A stretch of 42,704 nucleotides of DNA from NCBI GenBank assembly GCA_041651495.1, contig JBAZJC010000002.1, positions 1 through 42,704 of the forward strand. Reading direction: 5' to 3'. Position numbers and translations under genes: made by a program. Source of the DNA: Candidatus Omnitrophota bacterium. GTDB taxonomy: Bacteria > Omnitrophota > Omnitrophia > Omnitrophales > Aquincolibacteriaceae. Positions 1 to 42,704 of this stretch are shown here, in pieces. The notes below the pieces were generated by a model, which was given only the letters and a program-made list of their open reading frames with translations, was not told the DNA's origin and searched no databases. Each line of letters opens with the position of its first letter. Positions within the stretch are counted from its first letter, which is position 1.

Positions 1-590
1 TTCATGATGTCGAGTTCACGTGGAACATATCTGGCAAATTTGGTCATATAATGCGTGAAATCCCGTGTCGTGTAATGGAATATTGGATTTTTGAGTTTGC
101 GACATGGAAGATTTGTAACGATTTGTTCATGAACCGGTTGCGTCCAGACCACCTGCAACCTTGGAAAAAGCCGGATATGGGAATCTTTGAACGCATCGCC
201 GAATCTCAACCGCTTACCAAAGAAAAAGGTCTGGAACTGGATCGCGTAGACATACTTCTCGTCCTGTCCTCTTCCTGCAGGAAGAGAATCGGGTGCGGGA
301 TGGATGACCGTTTTAATTTCTTCCGCTAACTGCGGTGTCACTCGCTCATCCGCGTCGATGAACAAAACCCAGTCCCCTTTTGCCTGACTCATTGCAAAAT
401 TCCGCTGGCTGGCAAAATCGGTGAACGGATGCGTAACGACCCGCGCCCCGTATTTTTCAGCAAGCACAACGGTTGCATCCTGGCTGTTCGAATCCACCAC
501 GAGAATTTCATCCGCCCACGACAGAGCAGTAAGACATTCCGGGATATTCTTCTCTTCATTATTTGTTAAAACGATTGCGGAAAGTTTCAT
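1..590 (-). CDS. Glycosyltransferase family 2 (WaaE/KdtX-like), N-terminal ~196 aa; the 3' end lies beyond the window start
   Basis: Not in the ORF track because it runs off the window edge. Hand translation of the minus strand from ATG 590-588 stays open down to base 3: MKLSAIVLTNNEEKNIPECLTALSWADEILVVDSNSQDATVVLAEKYGARVVTHPF...GDWVLFIDADERVTPQLAEEI...PVHEQI...HYTTRDFTHYMTKFARY. This is a classic GT-A/GT2 N-terminus with a DAD (DxD-type) motif. The + strand ORFs 51..329 and 421..615 are its antisense shadows. Confidence 0.85.
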   Translation of the reverse strand, partial: MKLSAIVLTNNEEKNIPECLTALSWADEILVVDSNSQDATVVLAEKYGARVVTHPFTDFASQRNFAMSQAKGDWVLFIDADERVTPQLAEEIKTVIHPAPDSLPAGRGQDEKYVYAIQFQTFFFGKRLRFGDAFKDSHIRLFPRLQVVWTQPVHEQIVTNLPCRKLKNPIFHYTTRDFTHYMTKFARYVPRELDIM

Positions 591-713
591 AGGCCAGTTC
601 TCTTTGTCACTCTGATCCAGCCAACGACGGGAGAAGAATCTCACATTGAGGCCCTTCGTGCTCGGCAAAACCCAAGACGATGTTCGAAAATACGCCCTTA
701 GCGTTTAAATTCA

Positions 714-2444
714 TTACAATGCGACTTTTTTAGAAGGGATCGCTGCATTCATTCTTCTAAAGATTGCAAGCCCATCTTCTTCCAAAGAGAGACCATAGCC
801 GCTTTTCAGAAGGATTTGTTTCTCAGAAGCATAGTGCTCTTTCAGCAAAGCACTGTCGATCACGACATAGTCTGCATGGCGCGCTTTCCAGGAACCACCC
901 TCTTTAAGATGATTATTTTCGTAGATGTGGAGCTCTTTTCGATTCGCTGCGTGTGGAGCGTAGAACTCATGAGTCCTAAGGGAGAATTCGCTTGGGATTG
1001 CTCGAAGGACCGCACGAACCTGTTTTGTGTGCGGTGTGATCGAGATCCACTGGCGACGCATCGGATATACCTCCGAGCCCCCACTCATAAGAACCGCCGT
1101 CAGAAGAATCAGATAGGCCGCATAACGGCGAAAGAAGCGGAGCTTTGCAAGAGCCATGACCGAAGAAATCAGTACGAAAGGTGTCAGTGTGGCTGTGTAC
1201 TGAAAAAAAATCGAACGGGTCATTTCATTACGTGAAAGGATGTTCTGCGCCAGAGTAGGAAGTGACAGAATAAAGGGGGCGGGTGCAAAAATACTTGAAA
1301 AGGCTAAAGGCCCGTAGATCTTCACCAGATACTCGAAGGTGTCAGGCCGAAGCACATGCTTTATAAAAGGGCCCCATCCTGCTTGAAGCCACGAGGTAAA
1401 ATTCCCATCGAGATATGCATAAGGCGCGCCGGAAAGCTTTGGTATCAGAACATGGATAATCGTGAAAAAATAAACAACTGAAAACACCATCCATCCGATA
1501 CCCCATAACCTGACGGGATTCAGGAACACCCGCTGTCTTGCTTGGCATTCAGCATCGCCAACACTGGATGTTGGCTTAGGTGAAGACATAAAAAATGTTG
1601 CATAAAGTCCAAACGCAAAAGCGATGGTCGCTATATTTTCTTTGGCCATCAGGGCAATTGCCAGAAAAAATGATGCCTGGAGCGTTTTCCTTTCTTCGAG
1701 AAAAACGAAAGTCCAGAACAAAAATGGCATAGCCGCAACCTCCGGATGAAAATCGAACCGCACGGCATTCCGGACCGGCAAAGAAAGCACAAACGCAAGG
1801 CAAAAAAGGACCGCCCAGGATGGAGATTGGCCGCTTTTTCTGACGATGCGAGCCAAAGGGAAAACACAGGATGCGACGGCAAAGGCTTGGATCGCCAGTA
1901 AAAGCCCCGGCTCAGGCCATGCTCGGTATGGCAAAGCGAACACAGCCAACAGTGGCGCAAAATGATCGCCCAGAAGACAGATACCACCTTTGATGCTGGA
2001 ATAGAACCAATCGCCCTGGGTTGTATTCCAGATTGCTTGTGTGAAGATGGCCATGTCGAAGGATGTTTGAAGTGCAGCGTGTCTTAGCAGGCCTGAAGCG
2101 GTCCACCAGAATCCAAAAAGAACGAAGAATCCTGTGATCCAGAACATCGAAGCAGATTCCCAGGTCTCAATAACTCTTATCAAAAAACTGCGGGTTCCGA
2201 TTTCTTTGTCCCAACGCGCCCATTCAAACAGAACAAGCCCGAGGATCACCGCCGCTGCCGCCACATAGACGAATAATTTTCTGTAAATTTTGGGGGTGGT
2301 GTTGAAAACTGCATTCCATGACTCTGGAAGGAATGGCAATCCCCCGCTGAAATAGAATGCGATCAGAAGAAAAAAAATCACTTCGGCTACTCGATACCCG
2401 CCTATCCTGAGCCATCCGTTTTTTTCTTTCATAGTCTCTTTCAA
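714..2444 (-). CDS. DUF2079-type polytopic membrane protein (predicted GT-C-like glycosyltransferase), paralog 1
   Basis: 576-aa ORF, hydrophobic throughout, with a soluble C-terminal tail. The blocks DMAIFTQAIWNTTQGDWFYSSIKGGICLLGDHFAPLL, FHPE and AKEN match what I recall as the Pfam DUF2079 signature. The ORF at 10043..11650 shares them. Confidence 0.75.
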   Translation of the reverse strand: MKETMKEKNGWLRIGGYRVAEVIFFLLIAFYFSGGLPFLPESWNAVFNTTPKIYRKLFVYVAAAAVILGLVLFEWARWDKEIGTRSFLIRVIETWESASMFWITGFFVLFGFWWTASGLLRHAALQTSFDMAIFTQAIWNTTQGDWFYSSIKGGICLLGDHFAPLLAVFALPYRAWPEPGLLLAIQAFAVASCVFPLARIVRKSGQSPSWAVLFCLAFVLSLPVRNAVRFDFHPEVAAMPFLFWTFVFLEERKTLQASFFLAIALMAKENIATIAFAFGLYATFFMSSPKPTSSVGDAECQARQRVFLNPVRLWGIGWMVFSVVYFFTIIHVLIPKLSGAPYAYLDGNFTSWLQAGWGPFIKHVLRPDTFEYLVKIYGPLAFSSIFAPAPFILSLPTLAQNILSRNEMTRSIFFQYTATLTPFVLISSVMALAKLRFFRRYAAYLILLTAVLMSGGSEVYPMRRQWISITPHTKQVRAVLRAIPSEFSLRTHEFYAPHAANRKELHIYENNHLKEGGSWKARHADYVVIDSALLKEHYASEKQILLKSGYGLSLEEDGLAIFRRMNAAIPSKKVAL

Positions 2445-2508: not shown

Positions 2509-4461
2509 TCAGTGGAGCTGGCCTTGTGAGGGTACTTTGAAAACATAAAATGTTTTTCCAACCCGGTAAAGCGGCCGTCTCCCATAAAACCATGACTTAA
2601 AATTATTTTGTTGAGCCATGTAATACCCAATGCCAAGGGCGTAGAATCCAGGGGCGGGATTGATCAAGTCATTCGTTTCCAATCGTTTCCAGGGTATCTT
2701 GTAATATTCATAAATATCAGCATTTTCGGCCTCTGATGCGATTATAATGGACGGGAGTTTCCTTTCAAGAACGAATTCCGCGAGGCGTTTGTTATCCTGC
2801 CCCCAATTCAAATTTGAATCCGCCACAAGTTTGGAACCTTGTTCCGGACTACCAATCCACTCATTAAAGTATGCCAGATAGTCGGACCCCGCCAATACGG
2901 TCCGGACAGCGGAAAAAACAAAGAGAACTGCAAGGACTACAGCCAAAAAATGTTTTACTGGTTTTGTCGTTATTTGCCCGATCAAAGATCCGGTGTATCC
3001 TGCCAGCAAGAAAAGGAAGGGATAAATGGGCAGAATGTGGCGAAGGCCGATATAGATCTTGTTTTGCATGGCTGCCCCAAGAAAAAAAACAAGTGGAAGA
3101 AAAACAAGGGACTTGATCAGTACCGAACGTTTGGAGAAAAACAGACCGATCGCTCCGAGGACCATTAAAACGAGTGTTAGCAAGGGAGTTTTAACGGCTA
3201 GGACACCCGGAAAGTAGCACCAGTTACAGGCAATGAAAGAACCTTCCACGCAGATCCCGTGTCCGTCCTTCGAATGGTTCAGAACGATACCGAGAGGTTT
3301 TATGAAATTTCCAAATCCGGCGAACTGGTAGAATTTATAAATAAAATCCGTGTATCCGAGGACGATTACCAAGGCGGCCAAAACCCAAATCGCCAGGAAA
3401 AATTTTAGAATGCGCATCCTGACATCTTTCGCGGAGAACCGAGCCAAAAAAACAGCAAGGCCGAGTGCCACAAGATTCCCGATCGTTAAAAATGATGCGA
3501 CAGAAACTCCGTATTTCTTTTTAAGTCGCATGGAGTAAACAATACAAAGAACAGCGCCAGCAAGAGCTGTCACTTTGAGAACGATCCTGAGGACTCTGGA
3601 ATTCCGGATCTTTTCAACGTCCCGGGCGCAAAGGTAGAACGCAAAAAGACAGAATGGACCGAACAGGACCATCGCCTGTCTTTCCCCGATTGCGTTCGCA
3701 ATCAAAAAAAGCGAGATGCCAAGGATCCACTTTTCAAATGAAGACGAAGGCGCTTTGATTAGGGCCGGATTTACGCCAGAAAAATAATAGACCAGGAACA
3801 AACTGGAAATGGCCGGCAAAAGGATCAATCCGCTGATCTTGGACATAAATGTCAAACCACATACAATACCGAGCAATACAGCCCGACCTGCAGAGGGCTG
3901 ATCAAAAAATCTTTTGAGAGCGTAGAAGGAAAAAAAGTAAAATACAGTGATCCCCATATCGGTGGTATAGAGGCTCCCATGGGCAAGCATATTCGGGTCA
4001 AAGGCAAAAAGGCCAAGAGAAAGAAGCGCTCCCCACATACCAAAAAGCTCTCCTGCAAAACAAAAGACGCCAATTCCCAGAAGAACCGTCAGTAGAACTA
4101 TCGGAATTCGCTCCAACAAGAGAATCAGGCCCGGATCATTTCCCATTTTGTAGAGAAAGAGGGCCCCGGTCTTCGAAATATCGACGGACGTGGATTCGGG
4201 CAGACGGATGAAGTTCTGGATCGGAAACTCGGGATGTAAAAACAGAAGCGGGAGAGAACCGAGCTGGATAATAAAGGGAGGATGCTCGCCCAGGAACTTA
4301 TAATCGTTGTAACGAACCATGGGATAACCGCTTCCGTTGTAATAGGTCTCATCCGTGGTTTGCCCATGGATCCAGGCCGCATAGGAACATTGAGCCGCCA
4401 AAGCTCCGATAAGCAAGGCAACCAGAATCCAATATATTGAAATCCGTTTTACATTCGACAT
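2509..4461 (-). CDS. ArnT/PMT_2-like (GT39/GT83-type) GT-C membrane glycosyltransferase
   Basis: The ORF track gives 2509..4563, but those first 34 codons overlap the upstream gene end and are not membrane-like. ATG 4461 (MSNVKRISIYWILVALLIGALAA) runs straight into TM1. The first external loop, TTDETYYNGSGY...LGEHPPFIIQLGSLPL, shows the DE..Y / hPPL pattern of ArnT/PMT_2 enzymes. Many TM segments are followed by a soluble C-terminal domain. Confidence 0.7.
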   Translation of the reverse strand: MSNVKRISIYWILVALLIGALAAQCSYAAWIHGQTTDETYYNGSGYPMVRYNDYKFLGEHPPFIIQLGSLPLLFLHPEFPIQNFIRLPESTSVDISKTGALFLYKMGNDPGLILLLERIPIVLLTVLLGIGVFCFAGELFGMWGALLSLGLFAFDPNMLAHGSLYTTDMGITVFYFFSFYALKRFFDQPSAGRAVLLGIVCGLTFMSKISGLILLPAISSLFLVYYFSGVNPALIKAPSSSFEKWILGISLFLIANAIGERQAMVLFGPFCLFAFYLCARDVEKIRNSRVLRIVLKVTALAGAVLCIVYSMRLKKKYGVSVASFLTIGNLVALGLAVFLARFSAKDVRMRILKFFLAIWVLAALVIVLGYTDFIYKFYQFAGFGNFIKPLGIVLNHSKDGHGICVEGSFIACNWCYFPGVLAVKTPLLTLVLMVLGAIGLFFSKRSVLIKSLVFLPLVFFLGAAMQNKIYIGLRHILPIYPFLFLLAGYTGSLIGQITTKPVKHFLAVVLAVLFVFSAVRTVLAGSDYLAYFNEWIGSPEQGSKLVADSNLNWGQDNKRLAEFVLERKLPSIIIASEAENADIYEYYKIPWKRLETNDLINPAPGFYALGIGYYMAQQNNFKSWFYGRRPLYRVGKTFYVFKVPSQGQLH

Positions 4462-4502
4462 GTTTTCCGATTTTTTCTTTTCTTGAAATGAAAAACGGAG
4501 CC

Positions 4503-6203
4503 CTAGGAACACTTTAAAACACGCAAGACAGCGGGCCGTTTTTTCTTTTTCTTGAAGAGCCACCGTTCAAGCAGACTGTCCTTGTTGATGCCGTTAACCG
4601 TTCCGATTTGTTTAATTTCAGGCTTCCCCGACACATCAAGCTCTTTGATCGTAACATAATACGCATATCCTTTTTTTGATTGAAACTTAAAATCATCGAT
4701 GGAATCATGATCCAGCTTTACCTTATTCCAGCCATCGTAGCTAAGCCCCAAAGCATAATAGAGATGATTTTTGATTGCTCCGGGCCGATCCCGGTAACTA
4801 TCCAGCGAGCAATAAAACTTACCCACAGCGAGATCATCAACAGGTTTCCCGCCACCCATATCTTTAAAGATCGTTCGTGCTGTCCCCCAAAAATAATTAA
4901 GCTTTCTGCCTAGCATGATCCGCACCGACAGGGAGTTCTGCGCATTTTCAAAAATGTTGAAACCAACGGAAAAGGTCCATAGTAGCAATAACCCTATCCC
5001 CCAGGATCTCCCACCGCCTTTTACGGCACAGTAACTCAACCGGGCGATCATTACTATAAGCGGGGCCATGGTCCCGCTGAAATAGCGTGGGTCGGGTTGA
5101 AACATTCCAAGAAATGGGAGCTCGGCAAGGAACCAAACGCCACAAATACGGACCATGGGATGGCTCCAAAAAAATATGACGTCCTTGGACTTGGCAATGT
5201 ATCTGCGCCAGATAAAGACACTCCCCGTGATGATGATAGTCCAGAGCATGAAAAAACCGAGCGTTCGCGCAATCGATACGGGAAAGACATGATCCCAGGA
5301 GAAAAAGGTCGATACCACTTCATTGTCGTACCCGCATTCGTAATTCCGGAAAAGCAGCCTGCTAATTGTTGTTAAATCAAAATGAACGTTCGGGAGAGCA
5401 CCACCGTTCAAATACATAACAGGAATGATCTGGAAGGCTACAAGTGCCATCGCAACATTCATCGAGAGATATTTTACAGGGGCTTGTTTCCAAGACTGGA
5501 AGCAAGCCACAGAAGAAAGAAAAACGGTCATCGGCAGTACCAGCATCGGCTCTTTGGCCTTGATCCCGATCCATCCCGTGACAAACAACGCGAAAAGCAT
5601 CCATCGAAACTGCCTGTTCGAGCCCTGATTAAAGATGTTCTTTTGGATTTTGTAAAAAATCCATATCCCCAGGAAGAGAAAAAAGTAGCACAGCGTAACC
5701 GTATCCGCAATCCACAGAACATGGCTGTAGTGTGCGGGAACAAAAAGAAAAACAAGAGTCCCCAAAATCGCATAGAGCCATGGGACTATCTGGGCCAGCA
5801 TCAAAAAAACAAACATCACGCAACCCGCAAAGAAAATCCCTTTGGTCAAAAAATACATGGCAAAGGGATTGAGCCCAAAACACTGCTGAGAAAACTTGAG
5901 GAACATCGGAAGGACGATCCTCTTGTATTGGACCTCATCATAGCGATCTGTCTGCCCTACCCAGTTATGGCTCTGGGACCAGGGCGTCAAAAAACTCGAC
6001 GCGAATTGGCTCCAAGGTGTTTCTCTCGCAAGGATGATCTTGTCCCAATCGTCAATATCACTGGCGGGAAGACCCTGGAATAAAAGAACCGACCAGGATA
6101 AAGTTAAACAAAAAAACAGACACGCAATCAATCGTATCCGTCTAGCGGATGTTGAAGCCGTACCATCTTGCAAGCTATCGTGTCCCATAACTTTTTTCCG
6201 CAT
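4503..6203 (-). CDS. Orphan polytopic membrane protein, GT-C-like architecture, family not recognised
   Basis: 566-aa ORF with numerous hydrophobic segments. It has an acid-rich first loop (GLPASDIDDWDKIILARE) and a soluble C-terminal region ending in a Lys-rich tail (LFKKKKKRP). It lies between a methyltransferase and an ArnT-like gene. ATG 6188 is an alternative start. Confidence 0.6.
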   Translation of the reverse strand: MRKKVMGHDSLQDGTASTSARRIRLIACLFFCLTLSWSVLLFQGLPASDIDDWDKIILARETPWSQFASSFLTPWSQSHNWVGQTDRYDEVQYKRIVLPMFLKFSQQCFGLNPFAMYFLTKGIFFAGCVMFVFLMLAQIVPWLYAILGTLVFLFVPAHYSHVLWIADTVTLCYFFLFLGIWIFYKIQKNIFNQGSNRQFRWMLFALFVTGWIGIKAKEPMLVLPMTVFLSSVACFQSWKQAPVKYLSMNVAMALVAFQIIPVMYLNGGALPNVHFDLTTISRLLFRNYECGYDNEVVSTFFSWDHVFPVSIARTLGFFMLWTIIITGSVFIWRRYIAKSKDVIFFWSHPMVRICGVWFLAELPFLGMFQPDPRYFSGTMAPLIVMIARLSYCAVKGGGRSWGIGLLLLWTFSVGFNIFENAQNSLSVRIMLGRKLNYFWGTARTIFKDMGGGKPVDDLAVGKFYCSLDSYRDRPGAIKNHLYYALGLSYDGWNKVKLDHDSIDDFKFQSKKGYAYYVTIKELDVSGKPEIKQIGTVNGINKDSLLERWLFKKKKKRPAVLRVLKCS

Positions 6204-6936
6204 TAAGTCCTTTACAGATAAAGGCCATATTATGATAAAAATGGACCGACGTTATATGAGTATCAAAATAGGTCGGAGAATAACCCTGTTTTTCAAACTC
6301 AATGTAATTAAGGCCATCCACATGCGATTTAAAGAACCCCATCGATGTGGCGGTATTGTTCAGGTTCACACTATCTCCCCCATAGCGCGGCCAATAGGCA
6401 GTCTGGAGATCCTCGCCCACGTAGATACCGCCATCTTTTAGAAGCGGGAATAAGACCTTAAACGAGCTGATAACGTGCTCATTGATGTGGCTTCCGTCAT
6501 CAATGATGATATCCAAGGATCCTATCTCGTTAAAAACCTCCCTCAAAAAACTTTCATTCGCCTGGCTTCCCCTGAAAATTTTTATCCGTTCCTCCTGCAG
6601 AGAACTCTTGTCGTAGATGTCGATGGAATAGATCATGCTATTCGGGAAATATTTCTTCCACATCCGAAGCGAAGCCCCGCCTTTCTTTGGGTCATCATCG
6701 CCCCCGACACCGATCTCCAATATTTTTAATTTCTTCTTCCGCAAAACGTGGAAATGCCGCTGATAATGTTGCGCGTACCAGTGCGCGTTCCATTTATCGG
6801 TCCTATAAATTTCGGCCAGCTTTACCAAATTATTCCGATAAAAAATTGACACGCAACGTTCGTAGAGACTTTTCAACCGCCGTTTGGATTCCGGAGACAA
6901 TTTCCGTTTAATCCCTTCAAGAATATTTTTATTCAT
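6175..6936 (-). CDS. Class I SAM-dependent methyltransferase, sugar O-methyltransferase-like
   Basis: The ORF-track start (GTG 6966) overlaps the upstream stop. ATG 6936 is preceded by GGAGAGG with a 4-nt spacer. The SAM motif is LKILEIGVGG...GGASLRMWKKYFPNSMIYSIDI, followed later by IIIDDGSH and DGGIYVGEDL. The N-terminal YRTDKWNAHWYAQHY block resembles rhamnosyl/fucosyl O-methyltransferases (from memory, not searched). Confidence 0.7.
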   Translation of the reverse strand: MNKNILEGIKRKLSPESKRRLKSLYERCVSIFYRNNLVKLAEIYRTDKWNAHWYAQHYQRHFHVLRKKKLKILEIGVGGDDDPKKGGASLRMWKKYFPNSMIYSIDIYDKSSLQEERIKIFRGSQANESFLREVFNEIGSLDIIIDDGSHINEHVISSFKVLFPLLKDGGIYVGEDLQTAYWPRYGGDSVNLNNTATSMGFFKSHVDGLNYIEFEKQGYSPTYFDTHITSVHFYHNMAFICKGLNAEKSYGTR

Positions 6937-6953
6937 AAAACCTCTCCGATGAA

Positions 6954-9915: not shown

Positions 9916-9963
9916 ACAAACCAACCTCTCTCTTTATACTCCAAAATACGAAAGAAAACCGTT

Positions 9964-28089: not shown

Positions 28090-28109
28090 GGAAAACTCCT
28101 TTCAGTCTA

Positions 28110-28349: not shown

Positions 28350-28378
28350 ATAACCCTTCTTGTTTATATTTATAGCAT

Positions 28379-28407: not shown

Positions 28408-28416
28408 TAGATGTCA
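28397..28416. repeat. Tandem 10-bp direct repeat (TAGATGTCA core x2) overlapping the -35 box; candidate operator
   Basis: The plus strand reads TTAGATGTCA ATAGATGTCA, with 9 of 10 positions identical and one helical turn of spacing. On the minus strand this is TGACATCTAT TGACATCTAA, and the second copy supplies the TTGACA -35 element. Confidence 0.5.
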
Positions 28417-28480
28417 CGAGATTTTCATTGTTAAGACTAAAAATTTACAACCGAGTTAGGAATGTCGCCACTACAACAAA

Positions 28481-28495
28481 CCCATTTTTATGGGG
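28481..28495 (-). terminator. Possible weak terminator downstream of the radical-SAM gene
   Basis: The minus strand reads CCCAT-AAAA-ATGGG (a 5-bp stem) followed by TTTGTTGT, about 55 nt after the stop at 28549. The stem is short, so the call is tentative. Confidence 0.25.
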
Positions 28496-28548
28496 GGAAT
28501 CTGTTCAAAGAGATTTTTTCGAAACACACTACAAAACAGTCGTGAGAA

Positions 28549-30114: not shown

Positions 30115-30167
30115 GATAAAGTACAACTCCTTTTTAAAATGTTCGGCTCTATTGTAGCATTAAACAC

Positions 30168-32033: not shown

Positions 32034-32036
32034 TTT

Positions 32037-34373: not shown

Positions 34374-34397
34374 CGGATTGCCCGAGGCTCAAGACAA

Positions 34398-35393: not shown

Positions 35394-36154
35394 TAGCCCA
35401 CCTTGACGTGCTTGATTTCAAATGCCTTTTGCTTCCATATTCCGGCCTTATGAAACAAATAGTGCACTACTGTTACCATAATCATAAGTCCGTACCGGAC
35501 GGCTTTTTTGAACGGCATCTGTGAATTTTCGTCTTCGTACCGGGTCGGATGTGGGATTTCCGCGATCCGGGCATTCCGGATAGCGGCTTGGATCAAAATA
35601 TCAGTGTCAAAGTCAAATTTATCACTCAAGAGGTCGAGCGGGATTTGGTGGAGAAAATCGGCCGTAAAAGCGCGATAGCCGTTGTGATAATCCGTCACAT
35701 GGGTTTGAAAAATAGTATTTTCAAGCCAAGTCAGAAAACGGTTCGGGATATACTTCCAAAGCGGCATACCATTCCTCAAAACATCCCCGAGGATCATACG
35801 ACTTCCGGTAACAACATCATATCCTTCATCGCGCATCTTTTTCACAAATTCCGGCACCAAACTTGGATCATATTGATTGTCGCCATGGACCATCACCACA
35901 AAGTCCGCCCCGCGTTTTAAAGCCTCTTTGTATCCAGTTTTCTGAACCGCGCCATAGCCATGGCTTTTGGAGTGGGATGCCAGCGACAGGCCTAGCCTTC
36001 TCGCGACCTCAGCAGTCCCATCAGTACTGCCATCGTTAACAACGATGATTTCATCCACCCAACCTTTAGGAATTCCAGAGACCGTTTTTTCCAGAACATT
36101 CGCGACATTGTAAGCCGGCATGATCACGATTACTTTTTTCCCCGTTTTATCCAT
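35393..36154 (-). CDS. GT2 polyprenyl-phosphate sugar synthase (Dpm1/ArnC/GtrB-like)
   Basis: KKVIVIMPAYNVANVLEKTV ... IIVVNDGSTDGTAEVARRLG ... VVMVHGDNQYDP ... VVTGSR. The protein is small (253 aa) with a single C-terminal hydrophobic helix. Confidence 0.75.
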   Translation of the reverse strand: MDKTGKKVIVIMPAYNVANVLEKTVSGIPKGWVDEIIVVNDGSTDGTAEVARRLGLSLASHSKSHGYGAVQKTGYKEALKRGADFVVMVHGDNQYDPSLVPEFVKKMRDEGYDVVTGSRMILGDVLRNGMPLWKYIPNRFLTWLENTIFQTHVTDYHNGYRAFTADFLHQIPLDLLSDKFDFDTDILIQAAIRNARIAEIPHPTRYEDENSQMPFKKAVRYGLMIMVTVVHYLFHKAGIWKQKAFEIKHVKVG

Positions 36155-36160
36155 GAGACG

Positions 36161-36955
36161 TTACGCTCTCCATTTTTTTGCCAAAATGATCATTTCATGA
36201 CCCCACCGGACCTTGTGTTTAAAAAAATTGAATTGAAATTTGTAAATCCAATTCCAAAAGAATGAAACCTTCCCGATCCAGTTTACCCAGAAAGAATTTT
36301 GCCATTCAGGTGTTATGCCGCTCTTCAAAGTCCGTGATTGTATCGTGTCAGTTACGGCACTTTTCGTTGGGCGACGCATGATTTTCGTATAGAAGTACCG
36401 CATCATCCAAAATACAGGAAAGGTGAAGTCCCACACCGCCACCACTGTAAGACCGGCATCTTCAAGCTTCTTCTTGATCCCTTTCGCCGTATACCTTCGA
36501 ACATGGCCATAAAAATCATCATCCCAATGCCAGAAACGCGGGTTGCTCGGAACCGTGATGACCGCATAGCCCCCGTCCGAGATCAAGGAAGCCAATTTTT
36601 GAAGGGCTGTCCTGTCTTCGGGTAGGTGCTCCAGGATATCCAGCAAAAGTACCGTATTGTAAATTCCGGCGACCTCGAAAAAATCCTTTTTTTCAAGAGC
36701 AACTGAGGGAAACGCTGCTAACTTCCGCCGGGCCGTTGCGAGCGCATCCTCCGAAATGTCAATGGCTGTCCCCTGCCAACCTTTTTTTGCCAAAAAACCG
36801 CTAACATTCCCGATCCCGCAACCGACGTCTAAAAAGCCAGGACGCAAGTTATACTCACCAATAAGCTTATTCAGGCAAAAGAGGATAGAATTTTTAAGAG
36901 GTAGAAAATTTGCCATTGGTAATGGGCCGTATGCTAGTCGAAAAAAACAATGCAC
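36161..36955 (-). CDS. Class I SAM-dependent methyltransferase (Methyltransf_11/23-like)
   Basis: FLDVGCGIGNVSGFLAKKGWQGTAIDISEDAL, LLLDILEHLPED, GGYAVITVP. The start is uncertain: either GTG 36955 (ORF track) or ATG 36916 (MANFLPL). The C-terminus is aromatic-rich. Confidence 0.75.
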   Translation of the reverse strand: MHCFFRLAYGPLPMANFLPLKNSILFCLNKLIGEYNLRPGFLDVGCGIGNVSGFLAKKGWQGTAIDISEDALATARRKLAAFPSVALEKKDFFEVAGIYNTVLLLDILEHLPEDRTALQKLASLISDGGYAVITVPSNPRFWHWDDDFYGHVRRYTAKGIKKKLEDAGLTVVAVWDFTFPVFWMMRYFYTKIMRRPTKSAVTDTIQSRTLKSGITPEWQNSFWVNWIGKVSFFWNWIYKFQFNFFKHKVRWGHEMIILAKKWRA

Positions 36956-37041: not shown

Positions 37042-37767
37042 ATGTTCAGCACACCTTTTATCAGCTTTATCACGCCAGTTTATAACGAGGAGGAGAATAT
37101 CGCAAGAATGCTTGCGAATCTCTTCGCGGTCCTCACTACCCATCCGGAATGGAACTGGGAGGTCATCCTGATCGAGGACGGAAGCAAGGACAGAACTCAA
37201 AAAGTTCTGGAAGCCGAGGTTCTGAAATATCCCAATTCCCAACTAATCATCCACAAAATAAATCAAGGCTATACCCAATCACTGAAAGACGGCCTCAAAG
37301 TCGCACGGGGACAATACCTTATGTATGTCGGGGCCGATGAAGAGTTTGATTCTTCGGAGATCCCTGATTTTGTGGAAATTCTTCGCAAAGGCGAAACTGA
37401 CGTGCTTTTGGGAGTACGCTGGCAGCGAAATGCCTATCAGCTTTTCAGGTTTTTTCTCTCCGTAGTCTATATTTTTATGCTGAATTATCTCTTCAAAATC
37501 CGCATCAACGACTACAATTGGTCTCAAGCCTGGAGCCGAAAGGTTCTCGAACGGATCAATCTGACCTCCAAATCACTTTTTGTTCTGCCCGAAATCATCA
37601 TCAAGGCTCACGATCTCGGTTTCCACATCAAAGAGATCCCCTCCAACCACCGCGGCAGGCAGGCAGGAAAATCCTCGGTCAATATAAAGATCATGGGTTT
37701 TGCCCTCTGGGAAAGTCTGAAGTTCTGGGGATACCGCCGTTCAAAGAATTACAAAGCTGGAAAGTAA
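37042..37767 (+). CDS. GT2 polyprenyl-phosphate sugar synthase (Dpm1/ArnC-like); the only plus-strand gene
   Basis: ISFITPVYNEEENIARMLANLFAVL ... WEVILIEDGSKDRTQKVL ... YLMYVGADEE ... LLGVR. Confidence 0.8.
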   Translation: MFSTPFISFITPVYNEEENIARMLANLFAVLTTHPEWNWEVILIEDGSKDRTQKVLEAEVLKYPNSQLIIHKINQGYTQSLKDGLKVARGQYLMYVGADEEFDSSEIPDFVEILRKGETDVLLGVRWQRNAYQLFRFFLSVVYIFMLNYLFKIRINDYNWSQAWSRKVLERINLTSKSLFVLPEIIIKAHDLGFHIKEIPSNHRGRQAGKSSVNIKIMGFALWESLKFWGYRRSKNYKAGK

Positions 37768-37783: not shown

Positions 37784-38335
37784 TTAATACTTCTGACGCA
37801 TGAGATCTGCACCGACGGAAAGGGCCTTTTCGTTGACGTAGATCAAATCTTTACGAAGCCCCTTAAACACTTTCCCAAGGACCGCGACTGCGCTGGCCAT
37901 TTTCACGATGCCGGTTTTCTGGATAGCCGCGCCTATCATGATCATATTCGTCACCTTTTCGTTTCCGATCTCCCGGGCGATCTGCGTTGCGGGGATCTCA
38001 ATAAGCCGACCGGTGGTCCCGTTCCGATCGATGTTAGCAACCTGGGAAGAGTCAATAAAAAAGATACCGTCGGAACGTGTTTTAGTCTTGAATTTCTCGT
38101 AGGCCGCCTGGCTTAATGCGAAGCCAAGCGTTGCTTCATCGATGATGGGACAATCGATCTCCTGATCAGAGATGATCACGAAACTGTGGGAAGCCCCTCC
38201 GCGGACCTCCACGCCGTAAGAGACCATCCCCAAAATATGACGCCCCTCCTCCAGCGCGGCATGCGCGAGAATATTCCCGGCCACGACAACTCCTTGGCCC
38301 CCAAAACCCGCAACAAAGATCTTTTCTTCCATCAT
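37784..38335 (-). CDS. 2-oxoacid:ferredoxin oxidoreductase, gamma subunit
   Basis: IFVAGFGGQGVVVAGNILAHAALEEG. The size is 183 aa, and there is a 4-nt overlap with the beta subunit gene. Confidence 0.85.
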   Translation of the reverse strand: MMEEKIFVAGFGGQGVVVAGNILAHAALEEGRHILGMVSYGVEVRGGASHSFVIISDQEIDCPIIDEATLGFALSQAAYEKFKTKTRSDGIFFIDSSQVANIDRNGTTGRLIEIPATQIAREIGNEKVTNMIMIGAAIQKTGIVKMASAVAVLGKVFKGLRKDLIYVNEKALSVGADLMRQKY

Positions 38336-39063
38336 CCGTCCACGTCCCTGAATTTTTTGATTGGAAAATAACTGGCCATCTCATTCCCCACAAACTGACA
38401 CGCTTCCTTCCCCCCCATTTTCCAATGGGTGGGACACATTGAGAGAACTTCGACGAAGGAGAACCCTTTCCTGTCGATCTGGTTTTGAAAGGCTTTGTGG
38501 ATGGCCTGTTTTGCACGCTGCATATGAGGCGCATCATGCACGGCCACACGTTCGATAAAAACAGGGCGGGCCAACGTCGTGAACATTTCACAAATCCGCA
38601 GGGGCGCTCCGGTTTCGGTCGACATCCTTCCTTCGGGAGTCGTGATGGTCTTTTGTCCGATCAAAGTGGTCGGCGCCATCTGTCCGCCCGTCATACCGTA
38701 CACCGCGTTGTTGATGAAGATCATCGTGATATTTTCGCCGCGATTAGCGCAATGAATGGTTTCCGCGAGACCGATCGAAAGAAGATCTCCATCGCCTCCA
38801 TATCCAAACACAATATTGTCGGGCCGCATCCGCTTGATCCCTGTAGCGACAGCCGGAATCCTTCCGTGCGGGCACTCGATGATATCGCAGTTAAAATAAT
38901 CATAGAGGAGTACCGCACAACCGACCGGCGCCGTCCCGATCGTCCGTTCCCGGATCCCCAACTCGTCCATCACTTCCCCGATAAGACGCTGTGTGATCGT
39001 ATGCCCGCATACAGGGCAGTAGTGCATCCGTCCGGACCTGATTGTTTTTTCTTCGGGCGTCAT
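38332..39063 (-). CDS. 2-oxoacid:ferredoxin oxidoreductase, beta (thiamine-diphosphate-binding) subunit
   Basis: YCPVCGH ... GYGGDGDLLSIGLAETIHCANRGENITMIFINNAVYGMTGGQ. There is a 4-nt overlap with the alpha subunit gene. Confidence 0.88.
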   Translation of the reverse strand: MTPEEKTIRSGRMHYCPVCGHTITQRLIGEVMDELGIRERTIGTAPVGCAVLLYDYFNCDIIECPHGRIPAVATGIKRMRPDNIVFGYGGDGDLLSIGLAETIHCANRGENITMIFINNAVYGMTGGQMAPTTLIGQKTITTPEGRMSTETGAPLRICEMFTTLARPVFIERVAVHDAPHMQRAKQAIHKAFQNQIDRKGFSFVEVLSMCPTHWKMGGKEACQFVGNEMASYFPIKKFRDVDG

Positions 39064-40133
39064 CGCTCTGCAATCTCCATGATCTTCGCCAAAAGTTCCT
39101 TAGGCTTGGGATACCAGCCACCCCCACGCCCCAAAAATTCAATCTTGGGATCAACAATCGTTGCGGGAATTCTCGAAAGACGCACATCCTCGATCATTTG
39201 CCCCTCGCTCATTTCGACCACAAGGAGCTTTCGGCAACGCGCGGCGAGCTTCCGGAGTTCCAGGGCCGGAAAGGGCCAAAGCGTGACAGGCCGGAAGAGA
39301 CCGACTTTAACGCCGGCTTCCCTGGCATGTTTGACGGCCCAGTGGGCGATCCGGGCAGGTGTTCCATAAGCGATCACGGCGATCTCCGCGTCATCGCCGA
39401 AACGCGTCTCGGAAAGCTGAAGCTCCGCCGTGATCTTTTCATACTTCGCCTTAAGTTCCATATTCTTTTCTTCCAAGGCGTCTTTTTGCTGGAGATAAAG
39501 CGTCCGGACCACGTTGGGTTTCCGTCCCGCGCAGCCCGTAAGGGCCCAGTCTTTCGCGACTGATTTCTTCTGGACGGGATCCTTCAGCTCGATCGACTCG
39601 GCCATCTGGCCCAGAATACCGTCGGCCAAGAGCATGACCGGATTGCGGTAATGGTCCCCAAGTTCAAAAGCCTGGATCGTGAGATCGTACATTTCCTGAA
39701 CCGACCATGGGGCCAAAACGATCAAACGGTAATCCCCGTGTCCTCCCCCGCGCGTCGCCTGGAAATAATCCGCTTGAGAGCCTTGGATATTACCAAGGCC
39801 GGGGCCTCCCCGCATGATATTGGCAATAAGACAAGGAATCTGCGCCGCGGCGAGGTACGAAATGGCTTCCTGCATAAGGCTGATACCGGGACTCGAGGAG
39901 GAGGTCATAGCCCTCGCCCCCGTCGAAGCAGCACCGAAGACCATATTGATCGCAGCCAGTTCGGATTCCGCCTGGACAAAACCCCCCCCGGCCTCCGGAA
40001 GATGCTTTGCCAGATATTCGCTAACCTCGTTTTGGGGGGTGATCGGATAGCCTGCGTAGAACCGACAGCCGGCCCGAATCGCGGCCTCCGACATCGCGAC
40101 ATTCCCCATCACAAGTGTTTTTTCGTGTTCCAT
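39060..40133 (-). CDS. 2-oxoacid:ferredoxin oxidoreductase, alpha subunit (KorA/VorB-like; substrate not assignable)
   Basis: GNVAMSEAAIRAGCRFYAGYPITPQNEVSEYLA ... AESELAAINMVFGAASTGARAMTSSSSPG ... GGGHGDY. GAGGA lies 9-10 nt upstream of the ATG. Confidence 0.88.
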   Translation of the reverse strand: MEHEKTLVMGNVAMSEAAIRAGCRFYAGYPITPQNEVSEYLAKHLPEAGGGFVQAESELAAINMVFGAASTGARAMTSSSSPGISLMQEAISYLAAAQIPCLIANIMRGGPGLGNIQGSQADYFQATRGGGHGDYRLIVLAPWSVQEMYDLTIQAFELGDHYRNPVMLLADGILGQMAESIELKDPVQKKSVAKDWALTGCAGRKPNVVRTLYLQQKDALEEKNMELKAKYEKITAELQLSETRFGDDAEIAVIAYGTPARIAHWAVKHAREAGVKVGLFRPVTLWPFPALELRKLAARCRKLLVVEMSEGQMIEDVRLSRIPATIVDPKIEFLGRGGGWYPKPKELLAKIMEIAER

Positions 40134-40204: not shown

Positions 40205-41881
40205 TTACGAGCGGAGACGGTAAACGCTGATCGGATAGCCGCCCCGGTCGCGCAACAAAATATCGCTCCAGAGAAAAGGGCCCCCGGTCAATGCCTGCGG
40301 GTCATGAATCGTCAAATCTTCCCGATTTCGATAGGGTGAGAACGTTACGATCAGGTCGGCATTCTTCCGAAGGGCATGGTTAAAAAGTTCTCCTCCCGAA
40401 CCGAGCGCATCGACCACGAGAATGTATTGAATGCCTTTTTGCTTCAGCGCCTTCAGGTCAAAAGAAACACGCGGTTCTGAAAACAGGAACCCGGCGTCCT
40501 TGAGATCTTCGCTCAGAAAATAAAGTTCATAGGACGGTTGATACGATTTTGCCAACAACGCGTCAAGGCGGCGCATCTTTGCCTCCGACTGAAAACCGGA
40601 AAGCGCGCGCGATTTTTTTTCTTCGAGTTGTTGGGAAGAAAATGCGAGTCGGGGCATATAAAATCCCCCGTCCAAAGCCAGACGACTCCCGGCAGCGATG
40701 TTGGCTTCGACCCAATTCTTCGCGACCGTCCTGACATCCGGTGCTGACATCAGCCAATCCCAGTGAACCGTTTTGATAAGGGAGGGTAAAATCACAAACG
40801 GGATCAAGACCCAGAACAGAAGCCTGGATTTTATCTTGAGCCAGTCTAAAATTTCAGCCGCCAGGATCACCATGCATGGAACAAGCGGCAGGACATAGCG
40901 GTCATACGGTTGCCCAAAGCGGCAAAGAACAAGATAGTAGGCGATGACAAACACCGCAAGGGCCTGGGACCTCGTATTTTTAGACAAAAGCGCCAGGGAA
41001 ACCCCCGAGATCGCCAGAATCAGCATCGGCCAGCCCAACGCTCCGGCCAGTGAGTAGGTCAGATAGTGAAACCACGGCATTCCCCCGGAATTCGCGGCCG
41101 ATTGTTCCGCAACCTCCTTAATGAAAAAAGCATGGTCGAGGATCGAGTAAGGATTTAGCACCACAAAGACCCCCGTCGCCCCCAAGGCGGCAAGAAACCA
41201 GAACACCAGCCACTGTTTCCACGACACACAACGGAAGCATATCCAGACATAGGGAACCACGAGAAAAACGCCGTTATATTTGGTCGCCGCCGCAAGTCCA
41301 ATCACTCCCCCCGCAAGCAGGTGCCCCTTCCACGAGGAGGGACTTTCGGAGACATGAAAAAAAACAAAGAACCCAAGCAGGAGAACAAGAACGAGCGGGA
41401 TGTCGGCATAGACATAGTGAGAATCACGGACATGAAGAAAATTGACTGCGAGAAAAAAAGCCGCCCATAGGGCTGAGTGCGCATTCCCGAAACGCTTCAC
41501 AAGACGAAAAAGAACATAGACGGAAACGGTCCCCAGGAAGACACCGAAAACCAGCCGAGCGATCAGGTAAAACGACGACGGATCAAGATAAAAAAGCTGT
41601 TCAAAGTCCCGCACGGAATGGAAAAAGCCTGCGGCACAACCTGCAAGGCAATAAATCCCATAACAAATAAAAAGCAGGTAGCTGACAAGCGGGGGAATAT
41701 TAAAGAAGTGAGGATTCAGATCCCCCATCCCGAACGCCAAGGCATGGTTAACGATAATCGGTTCATCCGCGTGATAAAGAAACGGCAGACCGAACTGGAC
41801 TCCCCCTATTCGCAAAAGAATGGCGATCGTCAGAATTCCGAATAAAAGGATGGTTTCGCTGGAAAAACGGAAGGCTTTCAT
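40205..41881 (-). CDS. ArnT/PMT_2-like (GT39/GT83-type) GT-C membrane glycosyltransferase
   Basis: 558-aa polytopic ORF. The first loop, LPFLYHADEPIIVNHALAF ... NIPPLVSYLLF, shows the DE / PPL pattern. The soluble C-terminal domain ends in ...GGYPISVYRLRS. A TGATG 1-nt overlap joins it to the upstream GT2. Confidence 0.7.
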   Translation of the reverse strand: MKAFRFSSETILLFGILTIAILLRIGGVQFGLPFLYHADEPIIVNHALAFGMGDLNPHFFNIPPLVSYLLFICYGIYCLAGCAAGFFHSVRDFEQLFYLDPSSFYLIARLVFGVFLGTVSVYVLFRLVKRFGNAHSALWAAFFLAVNFLHVRDSHYVYADIPLVLVLLLGFFVFFHVSESPSSWKGHLLAGGVIGLAAATKYNGVFLVVPYVWICFRCVSWKQWLVFWFLAALGATGVFVVLNPYSILDHAFFIKEVAEQSAANSGGMPWFHYLTYSLAGALGWPMLILAISGVSLALLSKNTRSQALAVFVIAYYLVLCRFGQPYDRYVLPLVPCMVILAAEILDWLKIKSRLLFWVLIPFVILPSLIKTVHWDWLMSAPDVRTVAKNWVEANIAAGSRLALDGGFYMPRLAFSSQQLEEKKSRALSGFQSEAKMRRLDALLAKSYQPSYELYFLSEDLKDAGFLFSEPRVSFDLKALKQKGIQYILVVDALGSGGELFNHALRKNADLIVTFSPYRNREDLTIHDPQALTGGPFLWSDILLRDRGGYPISVYRLRS

Positions 41882-42588
41882 CAGGAATGGAGACGACGGA
41901 TCCTCACGACATCCCAGAACATCGCGAGAGGATCCCGTAAAACCTGGACACGGCTTTGGGCGGAATTGCGCCAGATCACGGGGAGCTCCAAGAGACGGAG
42001 CCCGAGTTCCTGGGCCAAGTACAGGATCTCCACGTCAAAACTGAATCCGTTGAGTTTTTGAAGGCCAAACAGTTTTTGGGCGGTTTCTCGGCGAAAACAC
42101 TTGAACCCACACTGCGAATCGTGAATGCCTTTTAAGGCCCACCCCCGCGCTATAAGATTGAAGATTTTTCCCATGGTCTCCCGGAGAAAATTCTGATGGA
42201 TCTCGACTCGGGAGTCCGGAAGCGCCCGGGAACCGATCACGACGTCTTGACCTTTTTCGAGATACGTCAAAAACCTCGCGACCTCCTCGATCGGCGTCGA
42301 AAGATCTGCGTCCGTAAAAAGGACGTACTCTCCGGCCGCCGCGAGCATCCCCTGCCGGACCGCATGTCCTTTCCCGCGGTTCTTCGGTGTCACCAATACC
42401 TGGTGCGGGAATCCTTGTAATAGTTCCTGTGTGACAGCAACCGTCCGGTCCTGGCTGCCGTCATCGGAAATAATGATTTCCGACCCGTAAGGTTGTCGTT
42501 TCAGGAAATCCAGCACGGCCGCGAGGGATTGCGGCAGGCGTTTCTCCTCGTTATAAGCGGGAATGACCACGGAGAGGTAAGTCGCCAT
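41881..42588 (-). CDS. GT2 polyprenyl-phosphate sugar synthase (dolichyl-phosphate glucosyl/mannosyltransferase-like)
   Basis: MATYLSVVIPAYNEEKRLPQSLAAVLDFL ... IIISDDGSQDRTVAVTQ ... YVLFTDADLS. ATG 42588 is preferred because it overlaps the upstream stop as TAATG. The ORF-track extension to 42675 would read through the upstream gene's C-terminus. Confidence 0.8.
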   Translation of the reverse strand: MATYLSVVIPAYNEEKRLPQSLAAVLDFLKRQPYGSEIIISDDGSQDRTVAVTQELLQGFPHQVLVTPKNRGKGHAVRQGMLAAAGEYVLFTDADLSTPIEEVARFLTYLEKGQDVVIGSRALPDSRVEIHQNFLRETMGKIFNLIARGWALKGIHDSQCGFKCFRRETAQKLFGLQKLNGFSFDVEILYLAQELGLRLLELPVIWRNSAQSRVQVLRDPLAMFWDVVRIRRLHS

Positions 42589-42704
42589 TATTTCTTCCTC
42601 AGCGCTTCTCTGAAATATTCGATCGTATGTTCCAGCCCTTCCTCCAGAGCGACTCGAGGGGTCCATGAAAGACACTTTTGAGCCTTGGTAATATCAGGAC
42701 GGCG
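42588..42704 (-). CDS. C-terminal 38 aa of an extended-SDR nucleotide-sugar enzyme, UDP-glucuronate decarboxylase (UXS)-like; the 5' end lies beyond the window
   Basis: Hand translation of the minus strand gives RRPDITKAQKCLSWTPRVALEEGLEHTIEYFREALRKK*. This is the typical C-terminal RxPDI-KA---LGW-P-V-LEEGL---I-YF pattern of UXS / RmlB-type SDRs. Confidence 0.55.
   Translation of the reverse strand, partial: RRPDITKAQKCLSWTPRVALEEGLEHTIEYFREALRKK

Follow-up and report, generated by a model that had tools for sequence, protein, structure and literature searches.

The question raised by this locus is what a bacterium might build with eight large polytopic membrane proteins encoded in a single stretch of DNA. 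The stretch, referred to here as the window, is the whole 42,704 nucleotides from position 1 of contig JBAZJC010000002.1, in assembly GCA_041651495.1 of a Candidatus Omnitrophota bacterium. It is fairly probable that the window covers the greater part of a large Omnitrophota supercluster for cell-surface glycans, conserved in outline and mosaic in detail, with a variable centre around a Wzx-type exporter and flanking modules that pair family 2 glycosyltransferases (GT2) with candidate glycosyltransferases of the GT-C fold. Every part of it is a known enzyme class; the combination, and the locus as such, are uncharacterised.

A total of 37 coding sequences (CDS) were identified in the window: 34 complete open reading frames (ORFs), a small helix-turn-helix (HTH) gene (28110..28397) and two genes cut by the edges (3..590 and 42588..42704). 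The + strand holds just one of them, 37042..37767, and the other 36 are on the - strand; the chance of at least 36 of 37 genes sharing a strand is ~5e-10 by our own arithmetic. With sensible start codons, the coding share is ~98%, 31 of the 36 junctions are 70 nt or less, and the widest gap is 151 nt. The original prediction, made from the sequence alone, had counted 37 CDS with 36 co-directional and gaps mostly under 70 nt, and these figures hold. Its 4-nt overlaps (7859, 8827, 14939, 15880, 19318, 23187, 23945, 38332 and 39060) and 1-nt overlaps (35393 and 41881) follow from the ORF coordinates, and a third 1-nt overlap, TAATG at 42588, can be added, which ties the edge-cut UDP-glucuronate decarboxylase (UXS) gene to the last GT2. 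Taken as longest ORFs, 2509..4563 and 15880..17484 extend 61 nt and 131 nt into their upstream neighbours; their true starts are likely the ATG at 4461 (MSNVKR...) and a codon at ~17367, the latter agreeing with a 495-aa call in the Logan assembly.

Eight large membrane proteins as GT-C candidates

The eight genes take up 15,369 bp, or 36% of the window (a figure for the window alone), and each of their products has 5-10 strong transmembrane (TM) segments by hydropathy. On the basis of sequence all eight are GT-C candidates, with the fold of the two DUF2079 proteins itself a candidate assignment. Hidden Markov model searches with Pfam assign families to five of the eight (two DUF2079, two PMT/PMT_2 and one YfhO) and a sixth is a YfhO protein through its homologs. 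The three encoded at 4503..6203, 30168..32033 and 32037..34373 have no Pfam match even at E<=5, nor any sub-threshold GT-C or GtrA match. The families originally proposed (two DUF2079, two YfhO, three ArnT/PMT_2-like and one orphan) are right throughout, including which protein is the orphan, as judged from Pfam, from homologs and from AlphaFold2 (AF2) models searched with Foldseek. None of the window GT-C proteins has TPR or other peptide-binding domains in Pfam.

For two of the eight proteins, the orphan (4503..6203) and the 621-aa protein (30168..32033), there is a structural match. Both AF2 models have ~11-13 long helices and a C-terminal alpha/beta domain, with a predicted local distance difference test score (pLDDT) of 84 and a predicted template modelling score (pTM) of 0.87 for the orphan, and a pLDDT of 85 and pTM of 0.89 for the 621-aa protein. 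Their top 18-20 Foldseek matches are GT-C only, at probability 1.00 and template modelling (TM) scores of 0.4-0.6. For the orphan, the top 20 PDB matches are all GT-C (ArnT, ALG9, AftA, AglB, STT3, PglB, Pmt and Emb), and transporters appear only at a probability of 0.16 or less. The best match of the 621-aa protein is ArnT 5f15 (E 8e-7, TM score 0.51-0.60), followed by STT3, ALG9, DPY19, AftA, PglB and Emb.

The orphan has no family match even at E<=5 in either Pfam or NCBIfam. A word-indexed search recovered a family of ~21 proteins, and an exhaustive profile search gave 301 matches among 1.84 billion cluster representatives. Its near and middle relatives have no Pfam domain; PMT_2 with TPR is found only in far ones (E ~1e-6). 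Going by these searches, the orphan would belong to a small family found mainly in Omnitrophota. Thus one family in this window with a modelled GT-C fold is without a Pfam or NCBIfam model. Directly after its first TM segment (TM1) the orphan has the invariant residues D44/D46/D47. A PMT_2 homolog adjoins the orphan homolog in 5 of 6 GTDB Omnitrophota loci.

The 621-aa protein has distant full-length homologs (P0048 and P0050) that carry PMT/PMT_2, and its invariant residues are E127 and D131. Its residues 1-100 form about four extra N-terminal helices ahead of the E127/D131 loop. This extension is kept in all full-length homologs, has no family match, and is truncated in the stored gene call P0022 (489 aa). 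That it might have a flippase-like role is pure speculation.

The 778-aa YfhO-like protein (32037..34373) has more than 237 Omnitrophota homologs, and many, at 42-75% identity, bear PF09586, including P0055 (75%). A full-length alignment with the 836-aa YfhO protein (11654..14164; E 2.5e-10) makes the two paralogs, and the 778-aa protein has an invariant D36 after TM1. The 836-aa protein also has a weak NCBIfam match to PgfM1. In the DUF2079 protein at 714..2444, D130 and D160-H161 are invariant in an alignment of 6 sequences only; its orthologs, 63% identical, adjoin PMT_2 and orphan homologs in the related loci L003 and L012. A search of the literature on DUF2079 (PF09852) found nothing relevant.

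In every family that was aligned, invariant acidic residues lie in a loop after a TM helix, and these loops would face the outside of the cytoplasmic membrane. Searches of PDB sequences with the orphan and the 621-aa protein, singly or as profiles, gave nothing meaningful, and neither did the DUF2079 and YfhO-like profiles. Comparison of the window GT-C families with each other by hhalign was uninformative, the best being DUF2079 against the 621-aa family at a probability of 21% and the others below 1%, the reason being that these families lie too far apart and that only 6 DUF2079 sequences were aligned.

Putative donor synthases and two predicted flanking modules

The best solved relative of all three small GT2s is 5mlz, the dolichol-phosphate mannose synthase (DPMS) of Pyrococcus, with ArnC and GtrB next, in agreement with their original description as Dpm1/ArnC/GtrB-like. 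In NCBIfam, the GT2 at 35393..36154 best matches PpgS (E 7e-25), AglJ (1e-22) and a Dol-P-hexose transferase (2e-17), aligned full length, with PgfS at E 1.8e-11; its alignment to 5mlz covers only residues 6-141. The one at 37042..37767 has near-full-length alignments to PgfS and ArnC, and its homologs in L009, L011 and L013 are 80-89% identical and likewise on the opposite strand. For the one at 41881..42588, 5mlz is followed in the PDB by ArnC (1e-15) and GtrB, and its top NCBIfam match is ArnC (E 1e-18). By sequence, the three are relatives, not members, of any named NCBIfam equivalog. The other four GT2s of the window match rhamnosyl-, galactofuranosyl-, TuaG-, EpsE- and PglI-type enzymes and have no polyprenyl-phosphate synthase matches. 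For the glycosyltransferase genes within 6175..9924, the best NCBIfam families are rhamnosyltransferase/GlfT1, EpsD and GT4, not polyprenyl-phosphate synthases. The edge-cut GT2 (3..590) was considered as a fourth synthase, and this is unsupported: only the N-terminal ~100 residues of the full-length homolog in L005 can be aligned to NCBIfam models.

These assignments suggest how the flanks might work. Small soluble GT2s would charge polyprenyl phosphate with a sugar on the cytoplasmic side of the membrane and, after flipping, GT-C enzymes would pass it on at the outer face. One module would run from UXS through the GT2 at 41881..42588 to the PMT-like GT-C at 40205..41881, translationally coupled, the predicted sugar being a pentose derived from UDP-xylose. 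The edge-cut UXS fragment has an ortholog in L009 that matches human UXS1 (E 2e-91); a polyprenyl-phosphate pentose donor for this module is inferred by analogy. The other module would combine the GT2 at 35393..36154 with the GalE-like epimerase, the YfhO-like GT-C and the PMT-like 621-aa GT-C, for a predicted hexose of Gal or GalNAc type. Overlaps of 1 nt join UXS, GT2 and PMT-like GT-C in the former, and GT2 and epimerase in the latter. Because GT-Cs outnumber donor synthases, the five other GT-Cs (two DUF2079, the 836-aa YfhO, the 684-aa PMT_2 and the orphan) would have to share donors or use a flipped polyprenyl-diphosphate glycan. In the centre, which is cytoplasmic and strain-variable, the encoded enzymes would make a CMP-activated, legionaminic-type nonulosonic acid bearing an acetamidino group; GT2/GT4 enzymes and methyltransferases would assemble a lipid-linked unit, and the MOP/Wzx-type transporter would export it. 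The acceptors could be protein, lipid A/core or polysaccharide. What the data show directly is which families and folds are present, the synteny and the variation by module; which sugars are donated and to which acceptors, in what order, and by what route the lipid-linked monosaccharides cross the membrane are all predictions.

The original prediction had seen no small flippase of GtrA or ArnEF type, and indeed no GtrA or SMR (ArnE/F) protein is found with Pfam in any window CDS, nor GtrA/ArnE/F among the Pfam-annotated genes of L009-L013. A small flippase hidden between genes is excluded, because no intergenic gap is over 151 nt. In Citrobacter, a MATE/MOP-type protein is the proposed flippase for undecaprenyl-phosphate-ribose (PMC11127046); given this precedent, the single MOP protein of the window is ambiguous and need not be an oligosaccharide flippase.

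Table 1. Features of the window, in order of position (coordinates of the forward strand; TM, transmembrane; SAM, S-adenosylmethionine; SDR, short-chain dehydrogenase/reductase)
Feature	Position	Strand	Evidence and remarks
GT2, cut by left edge	3..590	-	Pfam Glycos_transf_2 E 1e-20
DUF2079 (a), candidate GT-C	714..2444	-	PF09852 over the full length, E 1.2e-54; 7 or more TM segments
PMT_2-type GT-C candidate, 684 aa	2509..4563	-	Pfam PMT_2 E 2e-10; ~10 TM segments; TDETYY motif after TM1
Orphan GT-C candidate, 566 aa	4503..6203	-	No Pfam or NCBIfam model; GT-C fold in AF2 model
Methyltransf_24-like gene	6175..6966	-	Pfam
GT2	6954..7862	-	Pfam
GT2	7859..8830	-	Pfam
GT4	8827..9924	-	Pfam
DUF2079 (b), candidate GT-C	10043..11650	-	PF09852 E 7.7e-39; ~9 TM segments; 28% identical to 714..2444, full length
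YfhO-family GT-C candidate, 836 aa	11654..14164	-	Pfam YfhO E 5e-15, above cut-off, C-terminal 80 residues only; ~10 TM segments
Methyltransf_24	14181..14942	-	Pfam
GT2, TuaG/EpsE/PglI-like	14939..15883	-	Pfam, NCBIfam
MOP/Wzx-type flippase	15880..17484	-	Pfam Polysacc_synt_3, Polysacc_synt; 12 TM segments; NCBIfam MOP flippase, TuaB
655-aa protein after Wzx	17354..19321	-	Weak TIGR04396 'surface carbohydrate biosynthesis protein', E 7.5e-6
CMP-nonulosonate block	19318..28089	-	CBS-nucleotidyltransferase, WbuX amidotransferase, HisH/HisF-like (WbuY/WbuZ), cytidylyltransferase, NeuC-like, NeuB-like, SDR, LegB 4,6-dehydratase
HTH_17 DNA-binding protein	28110..28397	-	Pfam HTH_17 E 1.3e-12; head of nonulosonate block, after widest gap (28397..28549)
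B12-binding radical SAM enzyme, variable slot	28549..30126	-	Pfam Radical_SAM and B12-binding
PMT/ArnT-like GT-C candidate, 621 aa	30168..32033	-	PMT-like by distant homologs and fold
YfhO-like GT-C candidate, 778 aa	32037..34373	-	YfhO by homologs; no Pfam match of its own
GalE-like NDP-sugar 4-epimerase	34398..35393	-	NCBIfam galE E 1.3e-47, below cut-off; Pfam Epimerase; 1-nt overlap with upstream GT2
Polyprenyl-phosphate sugar synthase-like GT2, 253 aa	35393..36154	-	DPMS 5mlz E 7e-10, then ArnC; no TM anchor
SAM-dependent methyltransferase	36161..36955	-	Pfam Methyltransf_23/12/25/11; same position in L009, L011
Polyprenyl-phosphate sugar synthase-like GT2, 241 aa	37042..37767	+	5mlz E 5.7e-12, 2-214 to 20-232; then GtrB, ArnC
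2-oxoacid:ferredoxin oxidoreductase gamma, beta, alpha (VorB-like)	37784..40133	-	Pfam POR, TPP_enzyme_C, POR_N
PMT/PMT_2-type GT-C candidate, 558 aa	40205..41881	-	Pfam PMT 2.5e-11, PMT_2 1e-9; 'HADEP' DE motif after TM1
Polyprenyl-phosphate sugar synthase-like GT2, 235 aa from ATG 42588	41881..42588	-	5mlz E 9e-20, 32-233 to 23-219
UXS, C-terminal 38 residues, cut by right edge	42588..42704	-	Matches C-terminus of L009 ortholog

Conserved flanks and a variable centre

Homologs of three window proteins, together with seven GTDB loci, come nearly all from metagenome-assembled genomes of Candidatus Omnitrophota. Among the related loci, L009, L010 and L011 are close relatives, and L012 and L013, which lie 8 kb apart on ENA contig NODE_87, are from one distant genome. 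The order shared by L009-L011 is UXS, GT2, PMT-like, oxidoreductase, methyltransferase, GT2 (opposite strand), methyltransferase, GT2, GalE-like, YfhO-like, PMT-like, a variable slot, HTH and LegB; L011 has an added insert of GDSL, PMT_2 and polytopic genes. NODE_87 retains the outline in full: identities there are 75% and 61% in the UXS-GT2-PMT trio, 80% for the opposite-strand GT2, 45% for the YfhO-like gene and 80% for the HTH gene. Its centre is a non-orthologous nonulosonate/Wzx block (NeuB 35%, Wzx 27%), followed by a GT4, a methyltransferase, the orphan (56%), PMT_2 (61%), DUF2079 (63%) and GT2s. The trio is conserved in L009 and L013. The macro-architecture thus recurs in Omnitrophota down to ~45% identity by sequence comparison, with the flanking GT-C modules conserved at 45-75% identity while the centre is replaced. 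Extra GT2+GT-C cassettes have been gained and lost between relatives. In L009/L011 the GT-C proteins are 68-74% identical to those of the window and the cytoplasmic enzymes 83-96%, which fits a faster evolution of enzymes presumed to face outward.

The arrangement is not an artefact of assembly, since the independent Logan assembly (SRR8542065) is identical across 15117..36181 of the window. A chimera is ruled out by this identity over 21 kb and by the repetition of the gene order in L009-L011. A mobile element is ruled out as well: there is no integrase or transposase among the window CDS in Pfam scans, and the HTH_17 gene is kept in place. A phage-borne seroconversion origin is unsupported, as scans of viral contigs turned up no relative of either fold-assigned GT-C family.

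The nonulosonate block of the centre is well matched. LegB (TIGR04180, 517.6 bits) and NeuC_NnaA (392.6 bits) score above their cut-offs, NeuB matches at E 1.7e-109, WbuX at E 6e-98 and WbuZ at E 2.5e-80; the nonulosonate synthase and cytidylyltransferase matches are strong and below cut-off. A legionaminic-type pathway should also include an aminotransferase and an N-acetyltransferase, and the window encodes neither. In L011 and L013 the block differs, with DegT and WbqC genes and a NeuB of 35% identity. The 655-aa protein that follows Wzx has no Pfam match, and a relaxed scan (E<=5) gave nothing usable; the corresponding position in L013 (22155..22364 as listed) has a 604-aa Capsule_synth (PF05159) protein. 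It is possible, from its position, that the 655-aa protein is a ulosonic-acid transferase.

The HTH_17 gene is 73-80% identical and at the same position in L009, L011 and L013, even where neighbouring genes are ~45% identical; conserved in place, it is read from its sequence as a putative regulator, not an excisionase. The widest gap, which is upstream of this gene, contains the best sigma-70-like match of the window (28407..28379, 11/12) and a terminator-like hairpin (28494..28481), both being consensus matches only. If this promoter is real, the HTH gene starts at ATG 28349 (79 aa). Across the window, scans for sigma-70 promoters and intrinsic terminators showed no enrichment over shuffled sequences, so operon boundaries are undefined.

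In the slot held by the B12-binding radical SAM gene in the window, L009 has a cassette of a PpgS-like GT2 and a PMT_2 GT-C. Relatives of the radical SAM enzyme, ~25% identical, are found beside GT-C genes in L002 (15269..16846), L004 (15303..16880) and L008 (12348..14045). It is possible that such enzymes recurring beside GT-Cs carry out a radical sugar modification such as C-methylation. The oxidoreductase operon has a VorB subfamily score of 507 bits, above cut-off, and a GC content of 0.55 against ~0.45 elsewhere in the window, where GC is uneven. It is 90-96% identical in L009-L011 and missing at the equivalent place in L013.

Other genes were observed in the relatives. Two further large polytopic proteins, at 670..2724 in L012 (684 aa, ~13 TM segments) and 4830..6617 in L011 (595 aa, ~9 TM segments), have no Pfam match and no BLAST match to the window, and may represent more GT-C-like families that lack a model. 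In L012 (2705..7114) the conserved GT-C module has as neighbours an AMP-binding enzyme, a carrier protein, an MBOAT and an ALGX-like gene; by sequence this would be a cassette for D-alanylation or a similar O-acylation, with no counterpart in the window. L012 also has a carbamoyltransferase gene after its Wzy_C gene, and the window has none.

Alternative explanations and related systems

The original prediction had gone further and layered several parallel extracytoplasmic steps onto a Wzx-exported unit containing nonulosonate, in a logic closer to mycobacterial arabinan and lipoarabinomannan assembly or teichoic-acid decoration. Taken to the full, all eight GT-Cs would act in succession on that one unit and most of a complex polymer would be built outside the cytoplasm. 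The 36 co-directional genes with their many stop/start overlaps, the share of the window given to GT-C genes, and the retention of the macro-order in distant relatives are all in keeping with such a single assembly line. So is the excess of GT-Cs over donor synthases, since in arabinan synthesis one donor feeds many GT-Cs. However, the modules vary independently, non-orthologous nonulosonate/Wzx blocks take the place of the centre between flanks that are kept, GT2+GT-C cassettes enter or disappear, and the oxidoreductase operon interrupts the locus in some relatives and not in others. In NODE_87 (L012) a Wzy_C gene comes directly after the homolog of the left-edge GT2, where the window ends, which suggests ordinary polymerisation or ligation. 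The layering on one unit is thus unsupported and must be seen as quite unlikely, and the contrast that had been drawn with textbook O-antigen and capsule loci is weakened: the backbone may be closer to textbook Wzx/Wzy than was thought. The GT-C modules might instead serve mainly PMT- and Pgf/YfhO-type protein O-glycosylation of pili or very long surface proteins, and merely neighbour the polysaccharide genes. The PMT, PMT_2 and YfhO families include proven enzymes of this kind, such as PgfM1 and PgtC2, which act on Ser/Thr-rich regions (10.1101/2024.05.05.592596); the module at 30168..36154 is Pgf-like in gene content, far relatives of the orphan bear TPR domains like protein-directed PMT_2 enzymes, and export or membrane anchoring is predicted for most long Omnitrophota proteins (10.64898/2026.06.07.730766). 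Yet neither the window nor L009-L013 encodes a candidate acceptor protein, and members of the same families also act on lipid A (ArnT) and on teichoic acids (YfhO). PgfS and PgfM1 are matched at scores that fall far short of the NCBIfam cut-offs, and the window GT-Cs lack the TPR or other peptide-binding domains. Protein glycosylation as the main role is unlikely.

A recombination-prone, hypervariable island of unrelated cassettes, some of them perhaps decaying, could also bring eight such genes together, the number then having no functional meaning. Hypervariable polysaccharide cassettes have been described in Omnitrophota (10.64898/2026.05.20.726742), and the variable slot, the extra cassettes, the embedded unrelated oxidoreductase operon and the uneven GC would suit this. 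Against it, each of the eight genes is a complete, unbroken ORF whose invariant motifs are kept among homologs, and the order of the flanking GT-C modules is conserved down to 45% identity. There is neither a transposase or integrase gene in the window nor, for the two fold-assigned families, any relative on viral contigs. Incidental clustering is highly improbable.

Several observations weigh against the supercluster reading itself. Its function is read from genes alone, in an uncultivated organism, and a shared product of the modules does not follow from gene clustering by itself. The DUF2079 proteins are presumably GT-C enzymes, from their Pfam clan and the one weak hhalign match (21%). GtrB, ArnC and archaeal DPMS end in TM helices that the three small GT2s (235-253 aa) lack, and these three score 35-88 bits in NCBIfam equivalogs against cut-offs of 325-529 bits. 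Anchorless relatives do exist, namely PpgS, the catalytic domain of mycobacterial Ppm1 and human DPM1. The GT2 at 37042..37767 adjoins no GT-C gene. With Pfam, no window CDS is an initiating phosphoglycosyltransferase, Wzy, WaaL, Wzz or polyprenyl-phosphate-sugar flippase. The oxidoreductase operon (37784..40133) is probably outside glycan synthesis, and it has its place inside the locus.

A bolder version of the supercluster reading is that the coat is built largely outside the cytoplasm by the GT-C battery, including the unmodelled family and the DUF2079 proteins, with anchorless synthases and no dedicated small flippase. Translocation would then fall to the MOP transporter, the GT-Cs themselves or the four-helix extension of the 621-aa GT-C, and the acceptors might include giant surface proteins. 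This is a speculative proposal and a rather improbable one.

Parts of the locus are like known systems. Three-component periplasmic glycosylation gives a mechanistic precedent (PMC11127046), and in the Pgf system GalNAc is transferred to Ser/Thr-rich protein regions outside the membrane (10.1101/2024.05.05.592596). Streptococcus mutans Pgf consists of the GT-A enzyme PgfS, the epimerase PgfE and the YfhO-type PgfM1/PgfM2, and 30168..36154 likewise has a GT2, a GalE-like epimerase, a YfhO-like GT-C and a second GT-C; in both, a lipid-linked monosaccharide is, or would be, made inside and transferred outside. The second GT-C of the window is PMT/ArnT-like and not YfhO, however, the GT2 has no membrane anchor, matches are far below equivalog cut-offs, and a methyltransferase is attached to the module. 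The Omnitrophota host is also far from the Firmicutes, and no Ser/Thr-rich acceptor is encoded in the window or related loci. The Arn pathway shares with the window the tight coupling of a UDP-glucuronate decarboxylase, an ArnC-like GT2 and an ArnT/PMT-like GT-C. Unlike ArnA, the decarboxylase here is of true UXS type, and the window has no ArnB aminotransferase, formyltransferase, ArnD deformylase or ArnE/F, and its GT2 has no TM helices. From the UXS type and the missing amino-sugar steps, the predicted sugar would therefore be a neutral pentose and not 4-amino-4-deoxy-L-arabinose.

The Gtr-type systems (GtrA/GtrB/GtrC; CsbB/GtcA/YfhO; Citrobacter GT136, PMC11127046) also pair a polyprenyl-phosphate sugar synthase with a GT-C, and the GT2+GT-C cassettes of this locus come and go between strains as seroconversion cassettes do. 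They differ in that no GtrA, SMR or dedicated MATE flippase adjoins any window module, in the ratio of eight GT-Cs to three synthases, and in that the window modules are chromosomal and a partly conserved core, not phage-borne. The mycobacterial GT-C cluster (Emb/Aft; PpgS with Rv3779; Ppm1 with Pmt) resembles the window in having many GT-C genes in one region and soluble anchorless synthases such as PpgS, the top NCBIfam match of 35393..36154, and AftA and Emb are among the structures matched by the orphan and by the 621-aa protein. Its GT-Cs are of Emb/Aft type, whereas those of the window are DUF2079, YfhO and PMT_2; the window has no DPPR synthase or DprE genes, its centre is Wzx with a nonulosonate block, and its phylum is another one, which appears to have lipopolysaccharide-type genes (10.64898/2026.05.20.726742). 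With Wzx/Wzy O-antigen and capsule loci that contain legionaminic or pseudaminic acid, the window shares a MOP transporter, GT2/GT4 enzymes, LegB, NeuB, NeuC, cytidylyltransferase and WbuX/Y/Z, as well as a strain-variable centre. It lacks their initiating transferase, Wzy, Wzz and ligase, with Wzy_C only in a relative and beyond the edge, and the GT-C share of its DNA is not found in textbook loci. The hypervariable polysaccharide cassettes reported for Omnitrophota are without this GT-C content (10.64898/2026.05.20.726742; 10.64898/2026.06.07.730766).

What is unusual here is the density of GT-C genes, the unmodelled GT-C family, the anchorless donor synthases, the missing small flippases and the UXS-coupled module. 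The Omnitrophota are widespread, mostly uncultivated nanobacteria thought to need contact with other cells, and their surface chemistry probably governs attachment and escape from phage. For this phylum the locus provides a concrete, conserved set of predicted surface-glycosylation genes. The unmodelled GT-C family has invariant residues that are open to testing, and the DUF2079 proteins gain a functional context. The locus is also a natural case for how polyprenyl-phosphate sugars may cross the membrane with no GtrA or SMR flippase nearby. If a polyprenyl-phosphate pentose is indeed both product and donor of the UXS-GT2-GT-C trio, the repertoire of three-component glycosylation would be extended.

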